The notes beneath the pieces are model-generated. The model was not told where the DNA came from, did no database searches, and saw only the letters and a list, made by a program, of their open reading frames with translations. From Cyanidioschyzon merolae (taxonomy: Eukaryota): a stretch of 64,000 bases of DNA. Positions 3,630-40,576 of the stretch are shown here, one piece after another. Made by a program: the position numbers and the translations under genes. Location of the stretch: the NCBI GenBank assembly GCA_000091205.1, contig AP006494.2. One strand, 5' to 3'. How positions within the stretch are numbered: the stretch's first letter is position 1; each line of letters starts with the position of its first letter.

Positions 3630-5705
3630 ATGTTGCGTTTCCTGCTACGTGCAGGCGCTCGTGCCCTGCACAGGGCGCCGGCGTTGGCTACGCTGAAGGT
3701 TCCCGAACCGGTGGTGGAACTCCGTCAGCCGTCGCTCCTTCCGCAGCGACGCCTTCGCTCAACAGGCGCTGTACAAGGCGATGTCGTTGGAATCGACCTC
3801 GGCACAACCAACTCGTGCGTTGCGATCATGGAGGGTAAGGCGCCACGAGTCATCGAGAATGCCGAAGGACAGCGCACGACACCATCGGTGGTGGCGTTCA
3901 CGTCCAGCGGTGAGAGGCTCGTAGGCATTGCAGCGAAACGCCAGGCAGTAACGAACCCAGAGAATACGATATTTGCCGCCAAGCGTTTGATCGGCCGGCG
4001 CTACGAAGACCCGGAGGTTCAACGCGATGTGAAAATCATGCCCTATAAAATCGTTCGTGCCGACAACGGGGACGCCTGGGTGGAGGCCCAAGGCAATCGG
4101 TATTCGCCAGCACAGATCGGTGCATTCGTACTGCAAAAAATGAAGGAAACAGCGGAGTCCTTCCTGGGCCGCACAGTGAATAATGCAGTGATCACTGTGC
4201 CAGCCTACTTCAATGACGCACAACGGCAAGCGACGAAGGATGCTGGTCGTATTGCAGGGCTCAATGTTTTGCGCATTATAAACGAACCAACAGCGGCGGC
4301 GTTGGCGTACGGTTTGGACAAAGCGGATGAAGGCAGAGTTGTAGCAGTGTACGACCTCGGTGGTGGCACATTTGATGTATCGATCCTAGAAATCTCGGGC
4401 GGTGTCTTTGAGGTGAAAGCGACGAACGGTGATACGCACCTCGGTGGCGAGGATTTTGATAACGTGCTGCTGAACCATCTGGTGAGCGAGTTCAAGAAGG
4501 ATCAGGGCATCGATTTGTCGCGAGACCGGCTGGCCCTGCAACGCTTGCGCGAAGCGGCGGAGAAGGCCAAGGTCGAGTTGAGCAGTACCATGCAGACTGA
4601 GATCAACTTGCCTTTCATAACAGCGGACGCCAGTGGACCGAAACATATGAACATGAAGCTCACCAGAGCGAAGTTTGAGTCTTTAGTGGACCATCTTGTG
4701 CAGCGCACACTGGAGCCCATGAAGCTCTGCCTGAAAGATGCGGGAATGTCTGCGAAAGATATTTCTGATGTGCTACTCGTTGGCGGTATGACTCGCGTGC
4801 CTGCTGTGCAACGGCTGGTTCAAGACTTTTTCGGTAGAGCTCCGAACAAGAGCGTCAATCCCGACGAGGTCGTGGCGATGGGTGCGGCAATCCAGGGAGG
4901 CGTTCTGCGCGGTGACGTCAAAGATATCTTGCTCTTGGATGTAACTCCACTCTCGCTGGGCATCGAGACTCTTGGTGGGGTTTTCACGAAGCTGATTCCG
5001 AGAAACTCGACGATTCCAACGAAGAAAAGTCAAGTGTTCAGCACCGCAGCTGATAACCAGACTCAGGTTGGTATCAAGGTTCTCCAGGGCGAGCGACCTA
5101 TGGCCGCCGAGAACAAACTCCTGGGACAGTTCGATTTGGTCGGCATTCCCCCGGCGCCGCGTGGTGTTCCCCAGATTGAAGTGATTTTCGATATCGATGC
5201 GAATGGTATCCTCCATGTCAGCGCTGTTGATAAGGGTACTGGAAAACGGAATGAGGTGGTAATCACGAGCTCCGGCGGCTTGTCGAATGAAGAGATTGAG
5301 AAGATGATTAAGGACGCTGAAATGCACGCTGAAGAGGATCGGCGGCGCCAAGCAGCTGTGGAGGCGAAGAACGAGGCAGATTCACTTTTGTACACTACAG
5401 AACGAACGCTGAGCGAGCACCGGGCCAAACTCAGTGCTACTGACGTGGAGACCGTCGAAAAGGCTGCACAAGACCTGCGTGCAGTCCTCGAGAAAGACGC
5501 TACCGCTGCAGATACGATACGCGAAAAGACGAAGGTATTGCAGCAAGCGGCCATGCGCATCGGCGAGGCAATCTACCGAGCCTCGCAGGCCTCGCAATCT
5601 ACTCAGCAGGCGCAACAGTCTCAAAGCGAGACCCCCGAGGCAGAATTCAAGGATGTGAACCAGGACAGTGACGAGAAGAAGCAGCAAGGCAAGGGAGGTT
5701 CGTAA
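3630..5705 (+). CDS. Mitochondrial Hsp70 (DnaK-type, mtHsp70/SSC1/HSPA9-like) with N-terminal presequence
   Basis: 691-aa uninterrupted [48 protein letters not shown] and a C-terminal EEVD-less tail identify a DnaK-type Hsp70. The Arg/Ala-rich N-terminus [22 protein letters not shown] is typical of a mitochondrial targeting peptide. Confidence 0.93.
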
Positions 5706-6378
5706 AACCGTGCGGCAAACGCGTGTACGTTCATTTTATCCCAGATCTCAGCACTGGGTACAGCGCTACTGTTCGGCATGCGGCGGCGTTCCTGGCCCAG
5801 AGCCTGGAGGCAGTCCATTTGCACGACGTTGCGGCGATACCGCAGTGCACGCTCGGTTCTTTTCGACTAGTTTCGAGCGTAAGCGGTCCTCAAGACTTGA
5901 AACATAAACAGGAGCGTTATTGAACTCGAGACACGACGCGCAGTGCCACTGCTGGCGAGCACAACGACGCTGTGCCAAGAGCACCGCCACGTCCCGCGGC
6001 GTGCGGTGCCATGCTAGGCAGCCGCCTCTGCGACCGCCCACTCTCCAGACAGTGCAGTGGCCACGCACAGCACTTGTTGCGATCGTCCTATGCTTTGTTC
6101 GTTCTCCTGTAGCGTATTGGCTCGATGATCCTAACCAGAGTGTCCAGATCTGCGAAAATCACTTGCTTCGGAGCTATAATAGCGCCGGCTCCCAAAATTT
6201 CGCCCGCGTTCCCGCTCCTGAACAGTGCCATACTTTTAGCGACTGCAACACACCGCCATGCACATCACAACGTCTCCGCAGACAGTAGTCGTCATCCGGA
6301 TCCCGTTGCACACGGATGCAGTGCAGAGGAACGATGCGCGCACCAGCAAACGCCTTTCAGAAAGCGAACGACGCCAGC

Positions 6379-6660
6379 GGTGTAGAGTAGTGGCGGCAAC
6401 CGCGCCCTGGACAATACGTCTCCAGCTTAGGTGCAGACGCCTCCTCGTCTTTCTCGACCGGCCACCTACTACTGCCTCCAACTTTTTCTCATATAGTTCC
6501 ACTTTGAGTGATTGTCCGACAAAATTCTCTCTGGTCAGCTCCGCAGGTCTTGTATCCATCATTGCACCAAGCCCGGAGACTAACCAACAAGTCACTTGCG
6601 GCCTTCCGAGAAAAGATAACGAATTAACGGTACATTAACGAAGAAGCAACACCAATAGAG
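6379..6660 (-). mobile_element. Solo 3'-tail fragment of the TnpB/Fanzor-like element family, truncated at the RuvC-III region where the LINE-like element begins
   Basis: Minus-strand translation ...PAELTRENFVGQSLKVELYEKKLEAVVGGRSRKTRRRLHLSWRRIVQGA matches the copy-1 tail ...PPEWTRENFIGQPLKVELYAKKFEEVVCGRSRKTRRRLHVSWRRFVYGA. Upstream, only FVN of the NRDFNAAINI motif remains. Confidence 0.55.
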
Positions 6661-9600
6661 GACTCTACAATAGGAAAAGAGACCCAACCAGATACGGAGA
6701 GGGAGGCACAAAGGCCTCATGATCCACCTAGATGCAAAATAACCAGAGAAAGCAGCTCAGGAAAGAGCCCGAAGAAGAAGAAGGCCAACGAGAAAAAATA
6801 GATGAATAGAAAAAAGAACTCCCGAACGAGCCCATCACAACTTGTTCCCCGAAAGAGCACCCCAGCAGGAACTCAAGAAAGCTGCCGCCAAACCAAGTCA
6901 CCTACTCACAGCGCTGAAGATGCGAAAAGCCGTGCATACAAATCTTTAGACCAATTGGCACGCGAGTATGTAGATGGGAATCAGAAGATTGCCAGAGAGC
7001 TGGGACTGCTTGCACCAGAACGTAACAGTTGCAAACCTCAGTACCTGAAACGACGTACCAAAACTCGGATTGATGAATGCCACCGACTCTATAAAATCGT
7101 CAACCGCACCGCCATACGCGCCAACGCCGGAGACAAGGAAGCGAAGGCAGCGCTACCGGTGCCACAGGCGCAACATGAAGAAGCTATCAAAAGAAAGAAG
7201 AAACTTTCCAGAGAAGACAAACGAGAGGATCGAAACCGCAGAATCGCCTCCCTGGCGAAATCTATGTTGGAGAGCACCAACGAAGATGAGACCTGGCGCT
7301 ACATTCGATCGAGACTGGACCCACCAAAAAGTGCTTGGGGCTCACACCAATCGTTTATAAGAAAGCGCTGAGGACGGAGAGTGCCTCAGTGAATGAGGCC
7401 TGGACGGACCACGGCACAGAATTACATGAAGACGCAACTGGGCACTGCCAAGACAGAATCTATTGGCACCAATGTGCTGCCAAACTACAGCGCCTCGAAC
7501 CGGTACCGGAATGGAACGACCCAATCTTCTGGCCTGAATCTGTTCGGACCCTGCTATGCTCAAGCAACCGCAAAACACCTGGCATCGACGGTATCTCTGC
7601 GGAGTGGATGATACTGGTGACCCCAGAAGACGGGACAACAGGGACACCATCGATACCAGATGAACTTGACACAAGCTTAGGCAAACGCCTTTTGGAGCTC
7701 ATTCAACGCATGTTTGAAGAGGCGTACATCCCGGATGTATGGAGGACTGCCGAGGTCGTACCGATCCTCAAAAAGGACTCCCACACATACACAGACATGA
7801 ACATCTACCGGACTATGCGCCTCATCCCGTCAATCATGAAGCTACTTTGCGCCATGCTCACGAACCGGATCCAGAGGCGCCTCGAGGAACGCAAGTTCTT
7901 CGCCCCAGAACAGGCTGGATTCCGGAGCCGCGAGGAGTGCATGAGCCATGCCCTGACCCTCATTGAAGTGGCGCAACGTCGCTTCATTAGCGACCAACAA
8001 CCAGCTTACGTATGCTTCATCGACTTCCAAAAGGCCTTGGACCCGGTCCCGCATGAGGCTCTATTTCTGAAGATGCAACGAGCCGGAGTCTCCGGAAAGT
8101 GCTTAGCGTTCTTCCGTGCGCTCTATGCAGACTCGTGGATGCGCATCCAACTGGGCGACTGCTCAAGAACCCCTTCCATAAGAATCCACCGTGGACTGCG
8201 ACGGGGCGACCCCACATCCCCGCTCCTTTTCAAAATCTTCATCAACGATCTGCTGAACATCTGCAGACAATACGGGCTTGAGGTGCCGTGGATAGACTGT
8301 GGAGATGCCCGATGAGGAGCCCTCACATAGGAACCGCCTCGCAGGCCGTCTATTTGCGGACGATGTCGTGCTGTTGGCACCCGCCCCGGGAACGCTTGCG
8401 GCTAGCATGGAACAAGTCAGCGCCTGGGCCGATCGCTGGGAGATGAGCATAGGAGCATCGAAGTGCGGCGTCATGGTCATCCATGGAGACTCGCAGAGCA
8501 TTCGCAATCGCTCGTGGCGGTTGCAGAATCAGGAAATTCCGATCGGGGAAAAATATCGCTACCTGGGGGTCTGTCTCACGCCGACGCTCGACGAAAAGGC
8601 ACACGTTGACGAGATGATCGCCAAGATGCATAGACGTACAGCGATCGCACGCCCAGTCCTATCCGACCTATCCCCTTAGCAATCCGTACCAGGGCACTAA
8701 GGATGTGTATCATCCAGCCTGCGACCTGGGGTGCTGAATGGTGCGGCATGAAGCACCCAAATGCCTCGCGTCTGCAGACAGCCGCCAACAGGGCAATGCG
8801 ACTCGTTGTAGTTGGATGCTCAATGCAGAGCAGAGCAACCAACCCGCTGGCACTCGGACTTGAACTCCAAATAGCCTCGATAGAAGCGATAGCGGCAGGC
8901 TGCCGGGCACGCATATGGGCCAAAAGGGCCCACCATGTACACCTGGTTCAGTCGGAGTTTCATGCAGACCCCAACGCACCGCAAAAACACTTGGATGAAA
9001 TCAACGCAGATTTGGCTGAAGCGCCTCTTAGGAGACAACACGCTCCAATCGTTCCCCAGAAATATAGAATTCTCCCGTCTCCTGAAGCGAACGGTCCAAA
9101 CAACAGTACGGGAATGTAGACATGCAGTCAGTCGCGCGAGTGACGCCGGCTTGACTCTATACTGGAACTACAACCTAGCATACACATGCAAGTACTGGTG
9201 GGAGGCGCTGGGGTTCCCGGGACTTGCTCGCGGCAGCCAGTGGCTCGCCAAAATCCGCGTTGGTGGCTTCTGGCTGGCACCGGCTCTAAGCCGTATAGGA
9301 ACACCGGAATCGCACTGGGAATCACACTGTCCCTGCTGTGGAGACGAGATCCCCGAGACGATGACATATTTAGGCTTACAGTGCCCGCGCTGGAAACAGG
9401 AGCTGGACGTCACCGTGATATTCAAAGGCCGGACACTCACTTTGAGTGTAGCACTGGCAACTGATGGTCTGTTAACGGAGCCTCAGCGCTCATTAGTTGC
9501 GAACAAACTCACACTCTACCTTCTAGGCGGAAGGTCCAGCGAATCGGATGCGCACACGGGCCCAGTGCTCTCTGCGCCTACCTACTGGTGGGTGTCAAGC

Positions 9601-10030
9601 AGAAACCCGCATTGCCAACCGACAACAACGCATTCCATGCATGATCACGAAGGAGAGAGGCGGCTCCCAGGATTCATTCTAACAGTCAAGTTTCTCCAGC
9701 GTGTCGTGCGGCGAAGACAAGCCTGCATCCGCAGACTATCCAAGCACAAACTGACGATGAGACCGGATTCTACGTCGGGTGAACCATGCCTCGAGCCGAC
9801 GCCCTCTGTGGTATGGAAAAGCCGTTCTGTCTCCGTGCAGCGACCGCACCGGCGCTTTAGGCGCCATTGCTGTCGCTTTCGGCAGGCTCGGCACACGATA
9901 GGACGTATGAAACGACCAGAATATCCAAAACGAAGTACAGGTAATGTAACTTGAGTGTAAGGGGTTGATGGATACCTCACCGCGCACTGAAAAAACACAA
10001 AAAGAGAGAAAGAAAAGAAAAATGCGCACA
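6660..10030 (+). mobile_element. Degenerate non-LTR (LINE-like) retrotransposon: basic N-terminal ORF, RT domain, CCHC-like knuckle, A-rich 3' tail
   Basis: ORFs 6802..7371, 7335..8315, 8299..8679 and 8935..9954 are collinear but in different frames. RT motifs FIDFQKALDPVPHEAL and FADDVVLLAP (FADD box). The downstream ORF has HCPCCGDEIPETMTYLGLQCPRW. The element ends in the A-rich stretch 9990..10030. Confidence 0.7.
7335..8679 (+). pseudogene. Reverse transcriptase gene of the LINE-like element, interrupted by a frameshift near 8300
   Basis: The RT fingers/palm motifs are split over two overlapping frames (7335..8315 and 8299..8679). Confidence 0.65.
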
Positions 10031-10493
10031 ATCGGAGAACGCTGGCACAAGGAAACGTTTTGTTCATTCTAAAAATCGCACTCGTTAAGCGCACCTGGGA
10101 GATCAGGCGGTCACCTGACACGACGTGCATGTCGCCATTGAAGGGAAACGCGATCCTGATCAGGAGCGTACTGCTCTACTGTACAAAATTTTATTTGCGT
10201 TAAAGTCGTAGCAAAATACAGTTTTTCAATTCATTTGTGTTTCAACCCTCAAACAAGTCTAGTCAAGTGTTTGTTCGCAGTATATTATATAAGGGTTCAA
10301 AGAGCGTTCTTTTTCAAAAAACTAAAAAAAAGGAAACCTATGAAAAAGCAAGTCGACGATCCTGGAGGTCCAGGGCCGCAGGCTGCTAGAAAAAAACAAA
10401 AACACTGCCGAGTCCAGAAGAAAATGAAGAGAAGGAGGACTGAAAGGGGAGGCTCTACGTCGAAGGCGGCAAGAAAGACAACTGTACGACGAG

Positions 10494-12842
10494 ATGGTGG
10501 TGAAAGCCGGTCTTCTTGAACATATCAAGGATCCGTACAGGGAAAAGTTGCGAGACGCTATCAAAAAACGTCTCGATTCGTACTCCAAGAGTATTGTCAA
10601 GGCGTCGTCAGGACTGATGCATGTGACGAGGGAGATGTATGAAGACGTGACGCACATCGGAACGGTCGAGATTCCGGACGAGTTTTTCGACAAGACCTTT
10701 ATTCGTCATGTGATGCTTGGTACAGAGGAAGCACGGAAGGAAAATGAGCTAGTGCATGCCCTCCACGAAAACTTCGCGGAATTCCGCTTCGAGGGCACTC
10801 GGTACAAGGGTGACTCGGATATGTACACATATGGGGCAATGAAGTACATTACGAACCTGAAGAACCATTTGACAGAGAACCTCGAACGTTTCATGAAACG
10901 CGTCGTGTTTGCACTCTACCCAGGCATCTCTTGCAATGGAAAATGGGCGATTATCAATGGCATCACGAACGATCGAAAGTATGAAGATGAGATCGAATTT
11001 GTCGACAGGAAGGCGCCGAGAGTGAGCGCGAAAGAAGCTTCTGCGATCCGCGCGGTTTTACAAGAGCATCGTGCGCTACTGGGGCTGGCGAATCCAACAG
11101 ACAAGATATCAGAGTTGAAAAAAGATAAGGAAAGATACTATCGCCTCGTCCTGCGGTATTTCGTGTTTCTGGATCGTTAACTCGAACGCTAAGCGGAGAT
11201 GAAGCTGAGTGAAGAGACAAATGAAGAGTGGGAGAGACGGAAGGCTTTCCTAATGGGGAAGCGCTTCAACGGCGTTCCAATGTGCAAGATCAAGTCACAT
11301 TTTGTGACTATCGACTCCGCAGTCCTTCATGGCATCATGAAGGAGATCAGTCCGGAGTTCAGTGTCAGCAGGGAGGAATTCTCCGGTGAAAACCGGGAGA
11401 CGCACTGGAAGAATATCTTCGATTTCAAACGCCTCTAAGTAAGCAAACAAAGGGTATTTACAGGGTTGATCGAAACAGATGGAGTAGCCTTGTGTGTACA
11501 CTATCGGCGCTTGAAGACAGATCGTCCAGCACCGCCCGTTACGAAGGATGGAGAAAAGGAGGAGGCTGGTCCTGCGACACAGGAGGTGGAGGATAATGTC
11601 CTTGTCGTTGACGCGGCGAAGGATGAGGATCAGAAGGAAGCGGGTCTTGCGATGCAGGAAGTGCATGAGAAGGACCTTGTCGTTGACGTCACGAAGTATG
11701 AAGATGAGAAGGAGGCGGAACCTGCGATGCAGAATGTGGAGGATAACGACCTTATCGTTGATGCGGCGGAGCATGAGGAAAACAAAGAGGAGGATTCTGC
11801 GACGCAGGAAGTAGAGGATAACGACCTTGTCGTTAACGCGGAGAAGCATGAAGAAACCAAGAAGGCAGGTCCTGTGACACAGAAAGTGCAGGGTAACGAC
11901 TTTGTCGTTGGCGCGGACCCTGGGAATACGAATATTATAGCCGTCGCTGTACCCAAGCGTGCGGAAGATGGTGCTGACGGTAACTTGCGTCAGAAAGACA
12001 TGCGTCTGTTGAGGTTCTCGAGAGCAAGATACTATCGAGAATCCTGTATAATGAATGCGAGGAAGAAAATCGTCAAATGGAATTCAGGAATGAAAGATCA
12101 CCTGGAAGCTTTGAGCGAGGTGACGAGTCGAGGAGCGGACTTTAAAGCTTTTCGGGAGTTCATGAAAGTTCGCGTTGCCCATTGGGATGCACTGGGGGAG
12201 GAGTATACCAAGCCCCCGGTGGGCTCGTTTGCGTATGAATTTGTATTTTGGGAAGCAGCGGGCGTTCGCGAATTTTTTCAATCAATTGAGTGCCCTGAAG
12301 GATGATGAAAGTCAGAGGCTCGTAGTAGCGTACGGGGCAGGGCAATGGAAGACCCAAAAAGGAACTACGCCAGCTCCAACGACGAGGGTGTACAAGGAGT
12401 GCGCAAGGCGTTTTGTTACAATACCTGTAGATGAGTTCCGAACATCGTATACACACCACGACTTGGGGTGTACACTTCAGAGCGTGGAGTTAGAAAAGTG
12501 CCCGCGGAGCCTTGAGGATATAAAAAAGTATGGACCGCTGACGGTAGAGCAAAATGGAAAGGATGTCGAAAGTTCGTGGACTACTTGCATTAATAAGTAG
12601 AACCAGTGATGGTAAGAAACGTATGGAGTTTGTGAACCGAGATTTTAATGCCGCTATCAATATAAGGAAATGTGCGGTGCTGGAGAATAGACCTCCAGAG
12701 TGGACAAGAGAGAACTTTATTGGACAACCTCTCAAAGTGGAACTATATGCGAAAAAGTTTGAAGAAGTGGTGTGTGGCCGGTCGAGAAAAACGAGGAGGC
12801 GTCTGCACGTCAGTTGGCGACGATTTGTCTATGGCGCCGGCC
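10494..12842 (+). pseudogene. TnpB/Fanzor-like nuclease gene, originally about 780 codons, broken by two in-frame TAA stops (11178, 11193) and at least two frameshifts (about 12200 and about 12560)
   Basis: Pieces are 10494..11180, 11199..11438, 11466..12305, 12175..12600 and the first 96 codons of 12554..14959. Where copy 1 reads FLDR*LER*AEMKL, copy 2 reads FLERELERQAEMEL, so these are point nonsense mutations, not introns. Confidence 0.6.
11580..11885 (+). repeat. Four tandem 75-bp (25-aa) acidic repeats ([14 protein letters not shown]...Q) inside copy 1, directly abutting RuvC-I
   Basis: Units [25 protein letters not shown] / [25 protein letters not shown] / [25 protein letters not shown] / [25 protein letters not shown] are followed by [14 protein letters not shown]. 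Copy 2 has a single unit. Confidence 0.8.
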
Positions 12843-12889
12843 GCTACTACTGCACGCCGTTGGCGTCTTTCGACTTTCGAACGGCGTTG

Positions 12890-14959
12890 ATGATGCCCTG
12901 CGTTCGTATGAGGCGTTCGTTTTCGAAAATAGCGCTGTGTTCCGCTGCGGCTTTTGTTTCGTCTGCAACGGTGCTGTTGCTTGGCGGGTATGACTCGCGA
13001 TGGTACACCCCTTTGGTTGCGAGAGCGCACTCGGCTAGCGTGGCGTCTGTGGACCACGGGCCGTTGCCGGTGCTCGAGACGCCACCGCGTCGTCACGCGC
13101 AGCTGCGAGTGTTAAAAGAGAGCGGCATGCGTTATGAATCTGTCCAAAAACGGAAAGCCGAAGCTGGAGGCGACGGCTCATCAAAAGAGGCTATGAGTGC
13201 AGTGGTACCGAGCGCTTTGCCGGAAGACGGCCTCTTCGATATTCTCGTCGTTGGTGGCGGCGCGACCGGCTCCGGCGTTGCACTCGACGCAACGCTCCGT
13301 GGACTCCGAGTTGCTCTAGTAGAGCGGAACGATTTCGCGTCTGGCACGTCGTCTCGTTCGACGAAACTCATTCATGGTGGTGTCCGGTACTTGGAAAAGG
13401 CGTTCTTTCGTGCTGACCCTGCGCAACTAAAGCTCGTCTTCGAAGCTTTGCATGAGCGAGCGATCATGCTCCGTCAAGCGCCTCACTTGACACAACCGCT
13501 GCCGACGATCCTGCCGTGTTACAAATGGTGGGAGATCCCATTCTATTGGGCTGGGCTCAAGGCCTACGACTTTCTGGCCATCGCAGGCAATGGCGCGCTC
13601 TATATGAGCAAGTTCCTCTCGGCGGCGGAAGCGCGGCGTCAGTTTCCGACCCTTTCAGCGCGCCGTGGCCGGGACGGCGCCACCCTCAAAGGCAGTATTG
13701 TGTACTACGATGGCCAGATGGATGACGCGCGATTCAATGTGACGCTTGCAGTGACGGCGGCGCTACACGGGGCAGTGATTGCAAATCACACTGAAGTTTC
13801 GGGCTTGATCAAGGATGCCTCAACTGGAAAGGTCATTGGCGCAACAGTTCGTGATCGTTTCACCGGAGAAGAATTTCCGGTCTACGCGCGAGTGATTGTG
13901 AACGCAACCGGCCCGTTTGCGGATCGGATACGAGCGATGGACGAGGGACCTGAGGCGCTCGGTCCCCAACGCATGATAGTTCCGTCATCTGGGGTGCACG
14001 TTACTCTGCCCAGTTACTATTCTCCGGAAGGCATGGGTTTGATTGTACCAAAAACGCGCGACGGTCGGGTTGTCTTCATGTTGCCATGGTTGGGATCGAC
14101 AATTGCCGGCACCACGGATTCAAGCACGGAGATTACGGACATGCCACGTCCGCATGAGGCGGAGATTGAGTTTATCTTAGACGCGCTTCGTGATTATCTG
14201 AACGTGGAAGTGCGTCGAAAGGATGTTCAGAGCGCATGGAGTGGTATTCGACCGCTTGCAATAGACCCCAAAGCGAAGGACACACAGAATATCCTTCGTG
14301 AGCACACAGTCCACGTCTCTGGCTCGGGTCTGCTGACCATCGCGGGTGGCAAATGGACGACTTACCGAAAAATGGCACAGGACACTGTGGATACTGCTAT
14401 CAAAGTTGCAATGTTGGAGTCTCGCGTGAAGCACAAGTGCTTGACAGAGAAGGTCATCCTCACCGGAGGTCATACTTATGACCCGTCGTATTTCGCTTTT
14501 CTCACGCAGCACTATGAAAGAGTGAAATACTCTGTCAGTAAGGGTGCCAAACTCCAGACCACGACGCTGGACGTAGACATAGCGCAACATCTTGCTCGAG
14601 CCTACGGAGATCAAGCTTACAAGATCTGCGATATTGCGAGCAGGGAAGATGCTGGTTACGGCAAACGCATTGCGCATGGCTACCCGTATATTGAAGCAGA
14701 GGTCGTGTACGCAGCTGAAAACGAATACTGTGAGACAGCCCAGGACTTTTTGGCGAGACGCTCGCGTCTTGCGTTTCTGAACGCCCGGGCGGCGAAAGAG
14801 GCGCTTCCCCGCATCGCTGAGATTCTCGCTGAGATCCACGGCTGGAGTCGCACCCGCTTGCAGACGGAAATGAAGGAGGCAATGGAGTTTCTCGAGACGT
14901 TTGAGTCCGGTCGTACGACTGGTGAGGTCGGTGAACAGGTTGAAGCAGTGGCCGCATAA
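12890..14959 (+). CDS. FAD-dependent glycerol-3-phosphate dehydrogenase (mitochondrial GPD2/GUT2-type), about 690 aa
   Basis: DILVVGGGATGSGVALDATLRGLRVALVERNDFASGTSSRSTKLIHGGVRYLEKA is the FAD/GlpA-family N-terminus. Start placed at the in-frame MM at aa 113 of the ORF-track ORF 12554..14959; the upstream 112 codons belong to the transposon tail. Confidence 0.82.
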   Translation: MMPCVRMRRSFSKIALCSAAAFVSSATVLLLGGYDSRWYTPLVARAHSASVASVDHGPLPVLETPPRRHAQLRVLKESGMRYESVQKRKAEAGGDGSSKEAMSAVVPSALPEDGLFDILVVGGGATGSGVALDATLRGLRVALVERNDFASGTSSRSTKLIHGGVRYLEKAFFRADPAQLKLVFEALHERAIMLRQAPHLTQPLPTILPCYKWWEIPFYWAGLKAYDFLAIAGNGALYMSKFLSAAEARRQFPTLSARRGRDGATLKGSIVYYDGQMDDARFNVTLAVTAALHGAVIANHTEVSGLIKDASTGKVIGATVRDRFTGEEFPVYARVIVNATGPFADRIRAMDEGPEALGPQRMIVPSSGVHVTLPSYYSPEGMGLIVPKTRDGRVVFMLPWLGSTIAGTTDSSTEITDMPRPHEAEIEFILDALRDYLNVEVRRKDVQSAWSGIRPLAIDPKAKDTQNILREHTVHVSGSGLLTIAGGKWTTYRKMAQDTVDTAIKVAMLESRVKHKCLTEKVILTGGHTYDPSYFAFLTQHYERVKYSVSKGAKLQTTTLDVDIAQHLARAYGDQAYKICDIASREDAGYGKRIAHGYPYIEAEVVYAAENEYCETAQDFLARRSRLAFLNARAAKEALPRIAEILAEIHGWSRTRLQTEMKEAMEFLETFESGRTTGEVGEQVEAVAA

Positions 14960-16519
14960 TGACGTGAGCGCAGAGCGTATGTATTTCAAAAGTATCATCT
15001 TCTTGATCGACGAGACTGGCAAGTCACCTTGGTAACTAGGAGCGAGCGCGTGCCCTTTTACCCAGTCCCTGGTTCCAAACTGGAAACGATCGGGCGTACG
15101 GATGGATTTCGTATGCGTTGAACAGCGTCGCTGGTGCTTAGGCTTGGAGCGTTCGTCCTCATGAGCTGCTGAATGCTCTGCGATCAAGATATCTGTAAAC
15201 ATATCGTGCATGAGTGGCTGATCATGCGTGGCACCGAGAGCGCGCTGCAGCTGGATGAACCTGGAATCGACAAGCTGCGGTCTAGCTTGCACGCGGTGCC
15301 GCGCTAGAGTATCCTGGGTTCTTGGCAGCTCTCGAAACTGAGTTTGTACTGGACGGGAGACTCCCGAAGGCGGACACGTTAAGAAAAAGTAGCTCGCTGG
15401 CTGTACCGGACATTGACACTGCTTTTCCTGTTTCTCAGTGCCAAGAAACGAGTAATAGACAATAACGCGCATTTCCCTGAGTTGCTATCGTGGTTTTCGG
15501 CACCAGGCTGAGCCGACGGCTGAACACACGAGCACGACAGTTGACCCTGCTCCCAGAATCCTGTGCATCGATGCATCACCGCTGCGCTGCGCACTTGTTC
15601 GCCATCATTTCTTCTCGGGATCGAGCGCATTCCCAGGCGCATCTTTCGCTTGAACATGCCAGTCGCAGTGCAGTAACGAAACTGCATGAAATGGACGCGC
15701 ATGGGAAGCGCGATGTTCACGAGAGCGTCGTCACGCGCTGCGCCTTGTCAAAGGCAGATGCGATCAGTAACGCGACAAACGTTTTACGATCGTGGAGTAT
15801 GTCTATATATGTGTAGACCCGCCCCTAGACGCCCCCCGGCCTTTTGCGACCGGTCTCCTGTTATCCGCTTCAGTCTATGCAGACACACTTCGCGCCTGAG
15901 AGGCTACACCATGGAGTTGGATGGACCCAGCTCCTTGGGTCTCGTCTACAGAATCACACATCCTCTGATACCGATTGCGGCGTTGACTGCTCTACGTTCA
16001 CGAAGTCCTTGCGTGCAGTTCTGTTAGTTGAACTCACTATTGCAAGGGTTGCGAGGACATGTGCCCTCTGTGCCACTACAGTCTCCTGTACCTCCACTGT
16101 TCTTCTTCTTGTTTGTCACTTGCTCTCCTTGGCTCTATGGTCGGCGAGTAGAGGATTTTTCGGTTTTTTAATCGAACCCGGCGCCACCGGGCCTCCATGA
16201 TCTTTGACTTTTATATTTGTAACTTTCACTTAGATTATTTATTCTTTTTAAATGAACGCACTTCGAGAGCATCTGTTATAAACCGCGACAAAGAACTTGG
16301 TGACGCGCATCTGAGGGATGGAACACAATTCAGATGAAAGACCGCAAGTGTGCACAACGAGTGCAGTTCGTTTGTGCGCGGGGCCCTTTGGAGGTAACTG
16401 GTACAATATGTATTCTTTTCTTGCGTATTTCAGAGCAAACGATATGTCTGTTCGCACCATCGCATCCGCGCATGCGCCTTCGCGGAATACCGGGTTCAGA
16501 AGCTCTTCTCCTTTATCTT

Positions 16520-17990
16520 TTGGGACGAAATAGACAACTCTTCTAGTCTTTTAACTCAGTTTTGGTCCGCGCACGCTGAATGGAATAGAATGCTATTTGG
16601 TAGTGGATAGCACGAGATCGACGTCAAGATGCAATGCACCCTATAGATCGCAGACGAATTCAGTATAGGATATGTATTCTATGCTGACCAGTACACGGAG
16701 CACTGGATTCCTCTTTAAGATCAGTGATACTACAGTACTCTGATGGTTGAGGAACACTGAACGAAAGAAGTGCATGCGCTCTGGGACAAGAACCAATATG
16801 CCCACGGCGTGCTTGCGATCAATGCTAGGAAACGACCCGTTGATCACTTTAGGGAACGTAAAAGTGCCGATCGTAGTCGCCACGGGCGTCTCTGTTTCTC
16901 AAAGGCTTGTTTGCGTGCTCCTGGAAACACCGGGATACAGTCGCCTAGAAGAATCCCAGCTCACTCACTACCACCATCCACCGAAAGCTGAACGACAGCG
17001 TTACGGGAGCGTTGCGATCTGTGTAGAGTACAGGGACGTCGATGGGTCCCAGTCGATGAGACATCCCTCGGAAGATACCATCGAAGCGTATAAGGATATT
17101 CGTGGAGCAGGGCACCTATTGTGCGCACCATCAAACTCGAAGAGACTAACGACATCATCGACTTTTCTAGCAGCAGTGGACTCATTTGGCAGCCTCACTT
17201 TCGCTGCTAGAGAAGCTCCATCTAACAGCACCAAACTCTTTGCCGAATCATTGAAGACTTTTCCCTGACGTCCGGCGACGTCATTCTATTAAACAACATG
17301 GAATTTTACCATTCCACTTGCGTCCGAGTATTTGCCCGTACTCTCGAAGTGTAGAGCTGGTTTTCACACCCGAGTACGCTCCATGCTTCAACCCATCGAA
17401 GGAGTGTTTTCTGCTGTGAAACGTAATGATCGCTCCATCGGGCGAATTGCTGACGCGTTCTCAGCGCACGGCGACGCGGGGACACATGTGGCCTCTCTTG
17501 CACAAGTCCTACCTCCTCCGGTGATGTCCTCACCGACGAGCATAGACAAGTGCGTTCATTTGAAGAAATAAAAAATCCAAGGGAAAGTCATGTAAATGGA
17601 AATCGAAGATCCTAGAGAGGCATCATCGCCGAGTTCGACAAAAAAATCCTCTTCTCGCCAAACATCAAGCGAAGAAGAACGACTGAGAAAGGAGAAAAAG
17701 AAGAAGAAGGCAGGAGATAGACCAGAGAAATGCTTGCCTAACCAGGCGATGACGAGATTGTGGCGCCACAGCGAGCACGACTTCTAGCAATCCTTGCATT
17801 GGTGAGTTCAACCGGCGTCAATGCACGCAAAGAGCTCGTGAACCGAGAATTCAACGTCGCCATCAGTATCAGACGATTTTTGGTGCTGAAAACGAGACCC
17901 ACGGAGCTAATGCGATCCAACTTCGTGGGCAGCCCCTCAACTTCGAAGAAATACCTGAATAAACTGAAACCGATTGCAGGCGGGCGGGGG
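16520..17990 (+). mobile_element. Composite dispersed repeat, copy A (about 1.4 kb): 5' module with a DE(T/S)xF-like remnant, then the Fanzor-like 3' tail (17800..17990)
   Basis: Collinear about 70% nucleotide similarity with copy C (60520..61640) and with the reverse complement of copy B. It shares the 24-mer gccacgggcgtctctgtttctcaa with copy C. The tail translates ...KELVNREFNVAISIRRFLVLKTRPTELMRSNFVGSP...KPIAGGRGVRK. Confidence 0.5.
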
Positions 17991-18273
17991 GTCAGAAAAT
18001 GCCCGGAGGCGTCTACATGCGGGTATCTATATTTACTCTCTGTGGTCTTGAAACGTTTACCGTTTCAATGCTCACACATATTGCAACAGCCATATCGCGT
18101 CATCGCACAGGCGATGTGTCCATCGGCAACGCCTAGCTGTTGATCAAACGATCCGGCGGGCGCGATATGCCACCCTCGGAGTGCGATCAAACATCCAGGC
18201 TCACAGGCGGACGCTGCGAGTGTACTTCCCTCGCAAGCCGCTGAGGTGTGCCTAGCGCTCGCTTTGAAGCAGT

Positions 18274-27399: not shown

Positions 27400-28900
27400 G
27401 ACCACTTATTGTAAATGAGTACCACAAGCGCACACGCCTCACAGCTTTTTCTGACCGGCCGCCTGCAATTAGTTTCAGTTTCTGCTTGTACACATCGAGC
27501 GTGAGAGGCTGCCCCACAGGTTTGCCTCGTGTCAGCTCTGCGGCTCTTTTCTGCAACACCACAAATCGTTTGATATTGATGACGGTGGTAAAGTCTCAGT
27601 TCACGAACTCCATGCGGGTATTTTCTCTGGGAGAACCTATCAGTGGAAAGAGTCCTCGAACTCGTGCCATTTTGTGCGGTGGCAGCTATACGCGCTTTTC
27701 TATCGCGAAAGCGCTCCGCTGCCCTCTCTCGAACTCGAACTTCTATAGCATACATATCAGCTCATTCCCTGTTTTTTTGCATGAACTACTTCTTCATGCC
27801 CTTCGGTGAGGACGTTCCCGAAGGAAGCAGGACTTGCGGAAGAGAGACCGCATGTGTCTCGGTGTAATCGCGTGTCTCCGTGTGTTGAACGCTTCAGCGA
27901 TTCGCCCAGTGGAGCGATCGTCACGTTTCATAAAGACAATGCTCATTAGATGCGGTTGAACCACGGAGTGTATAGACGAACGTAAAGCAGCTCTATTCTC
28001 GGATAGATTCGGCAAAAGCTCGAACGCGATTGGAACGGTTAGATGCGACGTCGCCCAATAGAATGACGTCGTCACGGTTCTCGAGACAAGTGTTCAATGA
28101 TTCGACAAAGTGGTTGGTGCTGTTGTATGGCCTTTCTCTACGGGCGAAACTGAGTCCGCCAAATGAGTCCACTAAAGCTAGAACAGATGATGATGCCGTT
28201 GGTCTCTTCGCGTTCGATGGTAGGCACAACGGGCGCCCTGCCCCGCGAATACCCATGTACGCTCCGAGCGCTTTATCCGAAGCAAGTCTCATCGACTGGC
28301 AAAACAAATCGACGTCCATGTGCTTCATTCGGATCGCAACGTTCCAGGAACTTTGCTGTGGGTGTGATTTCGGTGGAAGATGGCCGTACATGACATTGGT
28401 CGTCTTTTTTGTTACTGTATCCCAGTGTTTTCAGGATCACACGAACTAGCCGCCGAGAATCAGAGATGCACGTGACGACTATAATCCTCTGCTTTGCTTT
28501 CCGTGAGGTAATCAAGGAGTTAATTTTTTGTACAATTCATCGCAAGCAGTCTTCAAGATTGTCGGTTTTCGGCACGGAGCACATATACTTGTTTCTTTCA
28601 GTGTTCATCAAGCATCAGCGTGCTGGAGCGTGACGAATCTGAAGGAGGCAAAGCAGCACTCCCAGCGCTCTACAGTAAAGAGTATATATCCTACCGGAAA
28701 TTCGTCTACGATCTATCGAATACATTGCATCATGATGTCGACCGCCTGATGTATATTGTGAAAAAGCATCCGATTCCATACAGCGGGATGAAAGTAATAG
28801 AGTTGAAACACTGGAGAAGAGAATGAGCGGTGGCACTCATAAACGCTGCACTGCGCTCGATGCGCGACGCAACAGCGCGGCGTCGACGTCATCTGCAGTG
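27400..28900 (-). mobile_element. Composite dispersed repeat, copy B (minus orientation), ending in the Fanzor-like 3' tail (27400..27620)
   Basis: Minus-strand translation ...RMEFVN*DFTTVINIKRFVVLQKRAAELTRGKPVGQPLTLDVYKQKLKLIAGGRSEKAVRRVRLW. The upstream module matches copies A and C (for example KRDDRSTGRIAEAF vs KRNDRSIGRIADAF, and ...RRFVLPVDETCFG). Confidence 0.5.
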
Positions 28901-31900
28901 CACGATGCTGGCGAGCCACGGAGCTGCGGAGACGTCTGCTTGCTCTACGCTTACCGACCAGCCGACCGACCTACATACCGGGACACCGGTGTCGTCATCG
29001 TGTCGACGAAACGTAGCGGGCGTCGTGCGTGCAGCATCAGAGCGCACGTTCTACCGGAAAGATCACGGAGCATATGAAGCTGCTGGGCGTTTGGTGTGCG
29101 CAAATAGCTGTGTGAGTGCTCTTTGCTCTTTTGTGGACAGCTTGAAGGTGGAGCAGCCTCCTGGTGCTTTCAGATGTGCGTGGAACAAGACGAATCTATG
29201 ACAGCTGCTCACCATGCAGGCGAGGAAAATTATGGGTTGAATAGTTCTAGGGAGCTTGGAGACGCTCTCGGGGCGACAGAGGATGAGGCGGCGCGCGTGC
29301 GGCTCTTACTGGCTGCGACAGTGCAGGAGCCTGTGACGTGTCCGCCGGCAGCGCACACCGCGGATGCCGGCTCTGCTGGTTCGCAGCCAGCACGTCGATC
29401 CTGGCGCTACCGTTTATCGGTTTGGTGGTATCGCTACAAGGTATTTACCTTGTGGGTGGTTCTCGAACCGAGCGAAGTTGCAGTCACGCAGACGATTTTG
29501 TGGTCGACGATACTCGTCATTGGGTATCGAGTTCTGATGCGTATTTGGCGTTTTCTCCGATGACGGTTCACGTGTTGGCGCCGTTTCCATCTGGCGGCTG
29601 TTGTGGGAATCCAGCAGCAGACAAGTCCGTGACGGTATTGTTGGCAGAGCTTGCATCGCATGCTAACCCATGATCTCGGTTGACAAAGGTGGGCGCAGTT
29701 TTGCAGTAGTCTCATCGCGACATGGAGTACAGATTGAAATTGAATGAATGGGCATGAATCAGGATTACATGTGCTAAACCGTGCCTGATGACTCTCATGC
29801 GAAACCGTTTGTGCGGGGCTTCCCATCGAGCGCACCAAACAAATGGCAAGCCGCTTCTCGAAAATGCCCAGCTCGAGGTTTTAGTGCGGACACTGAGTCG
29901 CTCAGAGGCTGCTCGTGTGCTTTCAGGGCACTGATTCGGTGCAAGGAGCGAGCGTTCGGAGTCGTCGACCGCCGGCTGCGGGACGGTTCGTTCCGAGCGC
30001 CGTACCGGGCGCGTGCAGGCTCTATGGTGCCGAAAATAGCGGCAAAAATGCGAAACACGGACTTGTGCAGCGCTCTGGTTGGATACGAGCGAGATCGCCG
30101 GGATCGACGCTGGACGCCACCGATACTGGTGTTGCAGGTTGCGTTTTCGAGCGCCGTGCGTTGTGCACCAAGCAGTGAGTTGCAGAAAAACCGTGCCATT
30201 GCACCCTTTTTGTTGATGTTTGCTTCTCTCGCATCTATTCAACAAAAGCGGTTCATCCTGTAGGTTGGATAAAGATCGCGGGAGGACTTGATGCCATCAC
30301 TGGCACGTTACGGAAAACGACGTTACTTGTGCAGATCAGTGATTCTATGGTCAACAGATGGACGAGCCACCCTTCTCGTCGTTCTTATCGTGTACGCGGT
30401 GCTCCAGAGAACAGCGCTTACCAAACGCTATCTACCCGGCTGTGCCCTCGTCAACTCAATCGACTCTGTACGCACTCAGACGTATAGAATCAATGACCCC
30501 ACCGGATGAGAAGATTCTATTCGATTGATACGAACGGTGATAATGCTTCGCTGATGGACCCACAAGAAAGCACGTTTCTCTTGGAGGCCGTCACATGTCC
30601 AACAACACAGCATCGATTTCGTAGTAAGACGTGGACGCGTCTTCCAGTCGAGATGGGCGTTCGTCTCACTCGTTGAGACTTCGTTCGGGATAAACAGCAG
30701 ACCCGTGTATGGGTACGCAAAGAGGCGCAAACCTCTGTTCGTAAAGAAGAGACAGTCGGGTATTCCGAGAGCGTGAGCCCTCGCGGCGTTTCAATTGTTT
30801 GTTCGGCTAAAAAGTATCTAACGGACAGGATCGTTCGGCAGTTCATCCTTCCAGGCAGCACCTCCTGGCTCGTCCCCCGCAGCTTATTCCGTCTTGATCT
30901 TAGACAACGTCGCTCTCCGTCACGAAAAGAAAAGCCGCCCAGGAGAACGCGGCAGAGGCTAACGTTGAGAGACTCTTCATGCAAGCTTATCCTCTAGGGT
31001 TTCAACCAATCGAAGGTGTCGCGTATCTCATCAGACCCCATTTCTATGATCACGAATAAATACACGAGTCGTTTGCATCCGCGATTGTGAAGCGCGTACG
31101 GCCGTTCTTGATCAACAGGTCTCTCTCTATACGCTACTAGCTACAAAGTGCTGTGATGCTCGTCTTCTCGAGCGCGTGAGGACGCTGAAACGCTCGCTTG
31201 AGTCGGTGGACGCGCTCGCGATGGACACGGTGATAAAAAGGTACTTGGGGAGTCGAAGAAACAGAAACAGAAGGGACGGGCTTCGGCGCCACAGTGCACA
31301 CTTTTCGTCCGTATCACGCGATAAACAACGGATCTAGAAGCTACCGAACTCAGCAGCGTAAAGAAGAAGGCTGAAGATAAGAAGGAGAAGCAATCAACGG
31401 ACATAGATGTCGAAGATCTTGCCCCGAAAGAGGTTAACGATGGACTGGAGAAAAACTGACCGAGCTTATAGATCAGTCTGGAACCGTTTTCCACGCCGCC
31501 CTTGGAAAACAAATCAACAGGGGGGGTCTTCCAAATAGTAATAAGTAGGACCTGCTAGGGATCGCATGGCTGCTTCTCACTTGAGTAAGTCTCATCTTGC
31601 CGCTCCCACGATGACACGGCTCTTCAGGCAACTGATCGTTAGAGTCCCCGACTCTGGGCTGTCAGTTGCCTACGTACTACTTGAATTATTCGTTCAAAGC
31701 TTCCTACGACGGCAGAGCTGAGGCTCAGGACAAAAGCTGTAATTGCGCCTGATCTTTGGATTCGGGGTTCAGTGTATGTGCTTCTCGGAATACCTTGACG
31801 CATCGCAGCGCCACCTTGGCGTGCGGAACGTCGACCGGGCAGTCGGCAGATTCGATCCTATCGAGCATCGAGGCTCATTTCCGACCAGTCAAGGTAGACG

Positions 31901-33774
31901 AAGAGAAAGACTTCATGTTGAGCATGGATACCAGGTTCAAGGGCATCGCAGCCGTTACCATTCCACTTATTCAAGAGGACGGAGCCAAAGACGTGAAGAG
32001 AAAGCAGAGGAAGCCGCTGAAGTTTTCTGGGGCTTGGTATTATCGGGTGTCGATCATAATGGACTCCAGGAAGCATAGCAATAGGTGGAATGTCGGCATA
32101 CGGATCCACCTGCATGTTCTGAGAATCATGTTGCGTTGAAGCAGGGGCGTTGCTTTGTGTGTTTCAGTTGGAGAGTCGTTGAGCGTGCAGATAGCACGTA
32201 AGGACCCCCTTTGGCTGGTTAGCATGCGATTGCGCCAGACTCGCCAGCGGTTTCGGTTGTGCATAAGTACAAAGCGTGAATTCGCCAACTTGTGCAGTGA
32301 GTCGGAAAAGCAAAAGACAGAGAAGGCGCGTCGTTTAATCGGAGCCTATGACGCTGGACATACTGTAACGCACGGGGGCTGGTTTCCTGCGCCTTCGACA
32401 TGACGCGGCAACGCGTGAAAGAATCGATTCTGCACGATTCGCATCCATGAATTAGGGACGATTTACGCGGATCTTGGATACATATCCAAGCTGAAACTCG
32501 TCGAGAAGAAGAACGTGAAACAGAGCAAGGTGCACGAGATGGTATTTGGTTAGCTGACTGAACATCAGATTGCGAGCCAGTTGAAGGTGACATGCTTCCT
32601 TGCGCTCGATTCCGCTGGGAACAATGCGCGCAAGCACTTTCTGCACTGGGACTTGAACCCCTCGATCAGCCTACGGAAAGCACTGGCGCCTATGGAGCAC
32701 TCAGCGGTTTTTTGTCCAGCGAGTTTTCGCGGCAGTCTTTTCGTACTCAGGGTAAGCACGGGGCAGAAATGCCGTAGACGTGCAGAGAAAAAAACGAGTG
32801 GCCAGGAGAGCGCATTGGATTACCGCCTGAAGTAATGCACTGGTATGGTACGATGTAGCAATGCAAAAAGCATACAGGACCGGATGTATACGCAGAGAAC
32901 GCCTCTTCTGGGCAATTGCTGGACACTCATGGTAATCCATTATTCGATAGGACAGCGTTTGCGTCTCCCATAGGAATGAGACGCTGCGCGATCCCAGCGC
33001 ACAGTGGAGACCGATTACTGTTTCCTGCTAGATGATGAATGCTACTGCCCCATTGGTCCGTGTTGTTGATTCGGAAGCGGCAAACGCTCCGATGAAAAGG
33101 ACCTGCAGAATCGCTATCTGAAGCGGAAAGGTTCTCGCGTGTTGCCGCTGTGCGGTGCAACGCAGGAGCTCTTCGGCGCGGCTGCTGCGACGGCCAAGTT
33201 TTTCCATTTGTTTCGCCGTTTCCGTGAATCGAGCACCTGCTGCACAAAAATTCCACACACCGGAATCGGACCTGGTGCGGATTATGAAGAGACCCTCAAT
33301 AACGAGGCGCGAATTGCTGGCGCTGCAAGCATTGCCGATCATTCCGTGGATTCGCTCTGAGCGGGAGTAAGCCGCTGGCGAGTCACATGGCCACTGTACC
33401 GCATACGACCTGCGACATCGAGTGACAAACGAGGTGCTTTACGTTTTCCACGGGAACCCGAGATCCATTCGATGCATACAGCCTGGCGCTGGGACAGCTT
33501 CAAACCCGCGCAATGGACCGGGTGCATCGACTAGGCAGTGGCCGCAGTTCTGCGTACGATTCGATGCGCTTTGCTGAACACCAATGTCGTATAAAGCGCC
33601 GATGGATAGCTGAGGTTTTCCGAGCAATCCGTTAGCGAGGGTCTTCGGTTTGCAGGCACGGGATATCCTAGTCCGTGGTGCATACTCCTGGCGAGTCTCT
33701 AGGCCGTTCGCGTGCTCGGCAGCCGCGGAGGTACCGCGCGAGGCACCGGTCGCTTTTCCCGCCAACCGTACGCA

Positions 33775-39381: not shown

Positions 39382-40059
39382 GACAGAACGCTTTCCTGTA
39401 GCCCAAAGCAGAAAACTTGGCCCTGTCGCTGCTGCTGCTGCCGTCGTCGTCGTCGCTGTTCAGGAGACTGCACAGCTCGCTTAGGTACCCGAGCAGTGGC
39501 GGACGCTTCCTCGAGCGCCGGTGTCGCCAAGTCGCCTCCTGCAATTGAGTTCCCCGCTATGCTTGGTATGTCAGACCCCCAGCTGATCTGACTGCAGGAG
39601 GAAAGCGACGTTGCCACACAGCGTGGCAGCCTGGGCACCTGTTTCCAAGCGATACCGCCGAGGGGCGTCACTACTGCAAGGTAGAGAGCGAGAAATATCT
39701 GGGGATGGGCGGGAGGCGGCTGGCGGCGACGTCTCCCGCCGCAGCTGCCGCTGCTGCTGTTGTAACGTGTGACCGTTGCGTTGGATGATCGACGCGCGCG
39801 CGCGCTGCGATCTGGGATTTTTTCTCAGATGACGAAAAGTGCCCAGTGATCAGGGATCCCAGATTGCGGGATGGGTAGGTATTCGTTATCGAAAAAGCGT
39901 CCATGATGCTTCACGATACCTCCAAGTTCCATTACTTGTGCCTCCGTTAGGATGCACTGGTCGTTTCGTACGTTCTATCGAGCGCTGAGTGTCTGCTTTG
40001 CTGCACCCTGCTGAAGCGTCTACACCGACAGAGCAGATGCTGCGCGGAGACAGCGCGGC

Positions 40060-40340
40060 GTTACTGTACCACTGATGACTTCGGCTCGAGGCGCGGTCCA
40101 TCTGATAAGGGATCAGGATTCATGATCATTCTGGGATCCAGCGATCTGCGTAGGCGTTGCTGTGCCACTGATGACTTCGGCTCGAGGCGCGGTCCATCTG
40201 ATAAGGGATCAGGATTCATGATCATTCTGGGATCCAGCGATCTGCGTAGGCGTTGCTGTGCCACTGATGACTTCGGCTCGAGGCGCGGTCCATCTGATAA
40301 GGGATCAGGATTCATGATCATTCTGGGATCCAGCGATCTG
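40060..40340. repeat. Tandem repeat, approximately 90-bp unit x about 3.1
   Basis: The unit ccactgatgacttcggctcgaggcgcggtccatctgataagggatcaggattcatgatcattctgggatccagcgatctgcgtaggcgttgctgtg repeats three times. It lies about 240 bp upstream of the left end of Fanzor-like copy 2. Confidence 0.9.
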
Positions 40341-40576
40341 CGTAGACAGACGCACTGGCTGCGGCAGCGCGAAGCGATATGCTACGAGATAATCGTCATA
40401 TTGGCGACGCCCAGACGCAGTCTAAGTGTACCTGGTCTCGGAATAAACCGCGTTGCCGACGAGTTACTCAGATCTCAATAGAGTACTAGGCACTGGGTGC
40501 AGCATGGAGCACCAGCCTGGCAGACTTGTCCGGCTCGCAGGACATTCCGCCTGGAAGGTAAACGTTCGAAAATATG

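Follow-up and report, generated by a model that had tools for sequence, protein, structure and literature searches.

Interspersed elements close to those considered here have been described in Cyanidioschyzon merolae. The family Fanzor1 CMe-1A comprises ~150 copies of ~3 kb with ~80% identity to the consensus, has no terminal inverted repeats (TIRs), and is listed with target-site duplications (TSDs) undetermined and classification unknown (Bao and Jurka, 2013; PMC3627910). From the same organism, 253 copies of a transcribed 3.2-kb interspersed repeat with a WSV486-like open reading frame (ORF) and 26 class I elements that lack long terminal repeats (non-LTR) have been reported (Nozaki et al., 2007; PMC1955436). 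Characterised Fanzor1 nucleases are those of Parasitella parasitica (PDB 9cf0) and Spizellomyces punctatus (PDB 8gkh). Here we describe a locus in a 64-kb stretch of DNA, hereafter the window, which is assigned to C. merolae 10D since the flanking proteins are exact matches to 10D entries. The locus is the interval between the genes for a mitochondrial Hsp70 and for the mitochondrial FAD-dependent glycerol-3-phosphate dehydrogenase (G3PDH), and it holds three transposon pieces: a Fanzor1 3′ fragment on the minus strand, a non-LTR retroelement resembling a long interspersed nuclear element (LINE) on the plus strand, and a Fanzor1 element on the plus strand (copy 1).

The locus is best read as an ordinary nest of defunct mobile elements between two genes of C. 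merolae 10D, a reading to which we give a probability of about 0.78. The pieces belong to already published C. merolae families, all three are degenerate, and nothing suggests that the cluster has a function of its own. Between the stop codon of Hsp70 and the start of G3PDH the spacer measures ~7.2 kb, including 6.5 kb of transposon sequence, and is organized as follows.

3630..5705, plus strand: gene for a mitochondrial Hsp70 of DnaK type, flanking the cluster on its left (ORF; Pfam HSP70, 2e-277; exact match to BAM80803.1)
5706..6348, no strand: unique, non-repeated intergenic spacer of 643 bp (among 85 loci, matches the same locus only)
6349..6567, minus strand: isolated 3′ terminal fragment of a Fanzor1 element of CMe-1A type, 219 nt (inverted repeat; blastn; terminus alignment)
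6568..6610, no strand: 43 nt belonging to neither the tail fragment nor the LINE (Fanzor similarity no better than shuffles; LINE homology in other copies from 6611–6616)
6611..10072, plus strand: non-LTR (LINE-like) retroelement, 5′-truncated, degenerate and frameshifted, with ORF pieces in two frames (3′ end at 10063, then a short A-run)
10075..12888, plus strand: Fanzor1 element copy 1 (CMe-1A type), full-length pseudogene (intact relative L014; tblastn; three-frame reading; aligned copy ends)
12890..14959, plus strand: G3PDH coding sequence as annotated (exact match to BAM80805.1, 689 aa; Pfam DAO, 3e-58; DAO_C, 9e-37)

In the preliminary description of this DNA the transposon nest was correctly recognized, whereas the insertion history proposed for it was over-interpreted. 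That the interval contains no host gene is upheld, and in a search for the annotated gene BAM80804 no cluster ORF tested proved to be an NCBI protein; that it consists of transposon pieces only is not, as the 643 bp at 5706–6348 are unique and presumably a remnant of the ancestral Hsp70–G3PDH spacer. Metagenome contigs (JGI/ENA) carry the same locus at 98.6–99.9% identity, the part from Hsp70 through the tail fragment into the 5′ part of the LINE being covered by L001–L005 and the part from the LINE through Fanzor to G3PDH by L026 and L008; because independent contigs span both halves, the arrangement is not an assembly artefact. Single-copy DNA is ~99.95% identical between the window and these contigs, which renders the strain comparison uninformative on constraint at the junction, and only within the Fanzor body do patches of difference occur. 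These patches, of 100–800 nt and 9–15% divergent, are found in L011 (11843–12660 equivalent), L013 (12200–12400 and 12700–12800), and L026 (10300–10500 and 12700–12800), and point either to ectopic gene conversion between copies or to repeats that were assembled chimerically. In L011, positions 1–1500 furthermore hold a bacterial tyrosine-recombinase (integrase) gene and a long poly-T run joined to the C. merolae locus, a probable misassembly or chimera.

Identity and state of the transposon pieces

Copy 1 shares with CMe-1A, to which the 3.2-kb repeat corresponds, the host organism, a length of ~2.8–3 kb, ~80% similarity among copies and a TnpB/RuvC-type ORF, and additionally the lack of TIRs, the lack of detectable TSDs and the mostly degenerate state of the copies; its assignment rests on the published description of the family. 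It is unlike typical copies in having lost its stop codon, so that it opens into the neighbour gene, and in having the 3′ end of a LINE as its 5′ flank in place of the other upstream modules. Over its full length copy 1 is 83–85% identical to the intact element in metagenome locus L014 (2673–5416), and its segment 10125–12693 matches a second copy in the window (40723–43009) at 73%. The intact homologous protein P0001 matches copy 1 by tblastn in three frames, and the defects comprise in-frame stops at 11178, 11190, and 11436, frameshifts at ~12215 and ~12552, and the loss of its own stop. The stitched copy 1 protein has many close metagenome relatives, including P0001 (752 aa, 76%), and full-length relatives at 30–42% identity. 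The following features lie within its ORF.

11542..11916, plus strand: five 75-nt tandem repeats, acidic 25-residue units (repeat search)
11910..11933, plus strand: RuvC-I motif GADPGNTN (three-frame reading; D and G columns invariant in the homologue alignment)
12635..12673, plus strand: RuvC-III motif NRDFNAAINIRKC (aligns with the RuvC-III region of the Parasitella Fanzor1)

Together with VDEFRTS in the RuvC-II region at 12427, the RuvC motifs stand in canonical order, and the D, E, and D columns are invariant in the homologue alignment. A profile of eight homologues matches the Parasitella Fanzor1 with an E-value of 9.3e-14 in two collinear stretches, whereas the single stitched copy 1 protein matches the Spizellomyces Fanzor1 with an E-value of 0.91. 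The family is collinear with both nucleases over the REC-like region, RuvC-I, VDE(F/Y)xTS, and RuvC-III. Thus, the provisional label "Fanzor-like" is confirmed by the motifs, the profile match and the published CMe-1A family. In contrast to the characterised Fanzor1 nucleases, copy 1 matches weakly when taken alone, the C. merolae copies have degenerate zinc-ribbon cysteine pairs, and the hairpins at the 3′ end lack covariation. The zinc-ribbon (TNB) domain (Pfam PF07282, Cas12f1-like) reaches significance only in the distant homologue P0059 (E-value 4.8e-6) and is marginal in stitched copy 1 (0.066), and Pfam searches with the raw ORF pieces of the Fanzor copy returned no matches. The last 110 nt of the element are well conserved and contain palindromes; across 28 distinct copies, RNAalifold yields only −4.4 kcal/mol for them, with hairpins that have no covariation above shuffles, so that a guide RNA, expected at this end of a Fanzor element, found no support. 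The number of 75-nt repeats varies among copies, with ~1 in copy 2, four in P0001, two in P0002, and five in copy 1.

The LINE-like nature of the element between the two Fanzor pieces, already recognized in the preliminary description, is likewise well founded. The reverse transcriptase lies at ~7767–8572 (Pfam RVT_1, 2e-14), the best PDB matches are L1 ORF2p (5e-14) and R2 (6e-12), and a CCHC knuckle follows at 9328–9384. At 86% identity the element matches C. merolae proteins that carry the name "retroelement, alive", and it resembles the non-LTR retrotransposons of this organism in its L1/R2-type reverse transcriptase, the CCHC knuckle behind it, the short A-tail, and 5′ truncation; it differs from the annotated retroelements in being frameshifted. 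Its 3′ end, ...TGTTCATTC at 10063, is followed by a short A-run, and free copies in L014, L069, L038, and L076 define the 3′ end of the family as ...TGTYCATG plus A7–9. Other copies extend 5′ of 6611, so the window copy is itself 5′-truncated, and truncation points vary among copies. No Pfam match to an endonuclease domain, whether of the apurinic (N-terminal) or the restriction-like (C-terminal) type, was obtained in 320 residues on the N-terminal side of the reverse transcriptase, in 339 residues on its C-terminal side, or in those N-terminal fragments of the family that are longest, a negative that is weakened by the degenerate state of the copies.

The preliminary description had placed a solitary, inverted Fanzor tail at 6379–6660. 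Such a tail does exist upstream of the LINE, at 6349–6567: in the self-comparison (blastn) it is the reverse complement of 12672–12888, with 80% identity over 220 nt and an E-value of 6e-48, and at the protein level it reaches ~6575. It contains the last ~50 codons and the ~58-nt non-coding end of the element, its terminus (GGCGTT) is at 6349 and faces Hsp70, and it is 75–83% identical to the tails of many other copies. The tail was also considered as a left TIR of copy 1, and this was rejected, since an inverted tail is missing from the 5′ flanks of all 33 other distinct copies and the published family is without TIRs.

Element boundaries and comparison with Cyanidiococcus

Boundaries were taken from the self-comparison, the intact L014 element, and the ends of 38 distinct 3′ and 33 distinct 5′ copies from 71 metagenome loci. 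The intact element aligns to 10075–12885 of the window. The 5′ core starts with CGCTCGGTGAGCGCACCTGGGAGATC (window ~10075–10088), and the consensus of the 3′ ends reads ...CGCCACTACTGTACACCGTTGGCGTCGTTCGACTTTCGAACGGCGTT, beyond which the flanks are unrelated to one another and rather rich in G/T; from the alignment to this consensus the end of copy 1 was set at 12888. The 3′ ends of the family are precise and without A-tails. Many of the 3′ flanks open with G/T-rich words such as GATGGTG, and some 3′ ends are followed by microsatellite-like (GGTGGC)n or (GGTATC)n, as in L081 (~1215–1250) and L076 (~1775–1810).

A related genome was compared for presence or absence of the insertion, as the preliminary description had proposed. 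In Cyanidiococcus yangmingshanensis, which belongs to the sister genus, the gene order ClpS, RRM, PDT, Hsp70, G3PDH, biotin synthase, NUDIX, and RING is the same as in C. merolae, the two G3PDH proteins fall into one 90%-identity cluster with the same gene neighbours in both genomes, and the gap between Hsp70 and G3PDH is 858 bp. In a blastn comparison of this 858-bp spacer with the window, nothing aligned outside both coding regions, and no recognisable counterpart of the elements was found. Once the transposon pieces are subtracted, the C. merolae spacer retains 643 + 43 + ~19 bp, which is close to 858 bp and fits insertion with little deletion. With ~0.7–0.9 kb between the two genes in Cyanidiococcus against ~7.2 kb here, the simplest reading is that the elements were inserted after the split of Cyanidioschyzon and Cyanidiococcus, as this one outgroup would suggest; their loss in Cyanidiococcus is the alternative.

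Several points weigh against the reading as an ordinary nest with this history. The intergenic DNA of Cyanidiococcus and C. merolae does not align at all outside the coding regions, and the point of insertion relative to the ancestral spacer is deduced from length and from a similarity of ~10 nt immediately before the ATG. The position given for the end of copy 1 has a margin of up to 7 nt, since some copies share GWTGGTG after GGCGTT; if this word belongs to the element, the annotated ATGATG of G3PDH would be element-derived. Furthermore, the LINE/Fanzor junction is a recurrent one, so that the two pieces may not be independent insertions.

Independence and order of the insertions

Copy 1, full-length and by now degenerate, lies directly after the A-run of the retroelement, with its right end next to the start of G3PDH. 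The junction with the LINE bears on whether these were separate events. In 5/33 distinct copies, from diverged loci, the Fanzor core is joined at one and the same first base to a complete LINE 3′ end with A7–9, at window 10063–10088, L029 (~1180–1200), L032 (~1040–1060), L035 (~2600–2620), and L043 (~2650–2680), with the LINE parts truncated differently; in L014/L015 this Fanzor base adjoins a LINE that is truncated and oppositely oriented (L014 2665–2680). Upstream of most other Fanzor copies, a long conserved module of another kind, of class B or class C, is joined at this same point, and the class C module includes a LINE-derived piece. The association could be plain nesting in a gene-dense genome or reflect a mechanistic link.

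One form of such a link is that LINE and copy 1 did not insert independently, either because a composite was propagated by 3′ transduction, read-through, or template switching, or because LINE complementary DNA was preferentially captured at breaks at the left end of Fanzor elements. The base-exact junction with differing LINE 5′ truncations, the oppositely oriented LINE at the same base, and the LINE-derived piece in class C all speak for it, as do a LINE family without recognisable endonuclease and a CMe-1A family for which neither TIRs, known TSDs nor a classification are on record (PMC3627910). We nonetheless consider it unlikely. In a small tree the Fanzor-adjacent LINE parts are not monophyletic, and the 3′ end of the window LINE is nearer to a free LINE copy (87%) than to the other Fanzor-adjacent ones (75–81%). 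No TSDs flank the combined LINE and Fanzor units; at the four loci searched, none were found around the LINE, around Fanzor, or around both together. Precise Fanzor 3′ ends without A-tails and the joining of modules B and C at the same point likewise argue for independence, nesting of transposons is expected in a gene-dense genome, and the sample consists of metagenome contigs, which break at repeats.

The scenario put forward in the preliminary description was that the LINE entered a full-length minus-strand Fanzor copy, already present, at its RuvC-III motif and that the solitary tail is what was left of this copy. The tail fragment and the 5′ end of the LINE are merely 43 nt apart, and LINE insertions are often 5′-truncated and can delete target DNA. 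This scenario is improbable on several grounds. The tail is not cut at RuvC-III where the LINE starts: it lacks the motif, begins ~11 codons past the catalytic Asp at the equivalent of CAVLENRPPE, and is separated from the LINE at 6611 by the 43 nt. At 6568–6800 and 9950–10130, where the remainder of an older minus-strand copy was sought, local alignment scores of 7–9 equal those of shuffled sequence (mean 9). The far side of the LINE is instead occupied by the 5′ end of the plus-strand copy 1 at the recurrent junction, and no TSD is seen. Short 5′-truncated Fanzor copies are rare among the sampled loci and do occur. The tail is compatible both with an insertion that was truncated and with the remnant of a deletion.

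A further-reaching proposal, which we regard as quite doubtful, is that CMe-1A Fanzor1 elements are mechanistically coupled to the endonuclease-less LINE and that the cluster in front of G3PDH is a composite whose outward-facing Fanzor 3′ end drives the gene. Coupling of this kind would, if true, account for a recurrent junction that is exact to the base, for 5′ modules that vary, and for the missing TIRs and TSDs. The recurrent junction itself, if upheld genome-wide, could bear on how transposase-less Fanzor1 elements move.

The G3PDH start and related Fanzor sequences

At its right end copy 1 runs into G3PDH without a stop codon, and two features describe this read-through.

12554..14959, plus strand: read-through ORF of 801 aa, Fanzor tail plus G3PDH (ORF list; called as a gene only in metagenome annotations)
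12830..12832, plus strand: TAT at the place of the family TAG stop (comparison with other copies)

The Hsp70 stop at 5705 and this ORF were both correctly given in the preliminary description. Between 12554 and 12890 the G3PDH frame has zero stops, whereas the other two frames have four and six, and the DAO and DAO_C domains begin at residue 229 of the 801-aa ORF. Among the copies, the commonest end of the Fanzor ORF is a TAG at codon 64 after the R of RDFNAA (...SWRRFV*). Three coincidences account for the 801-aa ORF: in copy 1 this TAG is changed to TAT, the last 57 nt of the element are open and the junction is in frame. The last 96 codons of copy 1 had been described as continuing in the G3PDH frame; the shared frame and the lack of a stop stand, whereas of the 112 codons upstream of 12890 only ~92 are ancestral coding sequence and the last 20 comprise 3′ non-coding element sequence and the junction. 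From composition, 20 open codons have a probability of ~0.29, which with one-third for the frame gives roughly 0.1, and such a read-through is unremarkable for a family of 150–250 copies.

The conserved start of the enzyme lies downstream of all this. The Cyanidiococcus G3PDH (P0069) starts MRRSFSK, and its first residue pairs with Met 12908, the third in the C. merolae model; conservation extends from this Met on, and the next downstream Met is not conserved, which renders a start further downstream, as had been considered earlier, unlikely. We infer that the real G3PDH starts at 12890 or 12908 with a basic and then hydrophobic, mitochondrial-type N-terminus. The curated entry BAM80805.1 starts at 12890 (MMPCVR-MRRSFSK), avoids the chimera, and is off by no more than six codons. 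With its end at 12888, copy 1 thus stops 1 nt before the annotated ATG at 12890 and 19 nt before the conserved Met at 12908, closer still than the <50 bp first estimated.

It is very improbable that the 801-aa ORF encodes a genuinely expressed Fanzor-tail::G3PDH fusion protein, for which the frame open from 12554 and the calling of the product by annotation pipelines could be adduced, given that the ATG at 12554 specifies a Met in the interior of a pseudogene with frameshifts, that the orthologue begins at the equivalent of 12908, that the fusion would bury the basic and hydrophobic N-terminus 112 residues deep, that metagenome contig L013 has an in-frame stop in the tail at the same locus with G3PDH unchanged, and that the open non-coding codons in the right frame have the chance origin calculated above. 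The 801-aa ORF is an artefact of ORF calling. The concern that automated annotation could emit a chimeric model proved justified, with 801-aa and 823-aa "glycerol-3-phosphate dehydrogenase" products present in JGI/IMG, ENA, and UniParc. Annotation hygiene is hence the main value of the present analysis: these entries are transposon::gene chimeras, and the Fanzor copy should be masked.

Transcription of G3PDH would be initiated within the 3′ region of Fanzor or enter the gene by read-through from the element, because almost no ancestral upstream sequence adjoins the gene and the ancestral upstream region is now 6.5 kb away. The reasonable supposition of a transposon-supplied promoter or 5′ untranslated region (UTR) is based on the proximity of 1–19 nt and on the published statement that the repeats are transcribed (PMC1955436). 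The locus is like known transposon-derived promoters and 5′ UTRs in that an element end lies within 1–19 nt of a conserved housekeeping start and belongs to a family reported as transcribed; it differs from known exapted promoters in that the case is drawn from sequence, read-through or a minimal junction-spanning promoter being equally possible. In one of the most compact eukaryotic genomes, the locus is a clean candidate for a transposon-supplied promoter or 5′ UTR of a gene for a mitochondrial enzyme.

Further Fanzor-related sequences are present in the window. Short repeats at 16574–18024 (plus), 27434–28785 (minus), 60571–61611 (plus), and 15817–16300 (minus) share only the C-terminal/3′ tail of Fanzor, have ~1 kb of sequence foreign to Fanzor in addition, and probably represent non-autonomous relatives; one small inverted piece is situated just behind the G3PDH stop. 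Three 96-nt tandem repeats (98–100%) at 40057–40345, which precede Fanzor copy 2 by ~330 nt, adjoin a LINE-derived piece at 39923–40100. Finally, the degenerate RuvC half of a divergent Fanzor-like ORF at 31900–32754 (plus), with ~32% amino acid identity to P0001 and P0043, possibly represents a second Fanzor-like family in this genome.

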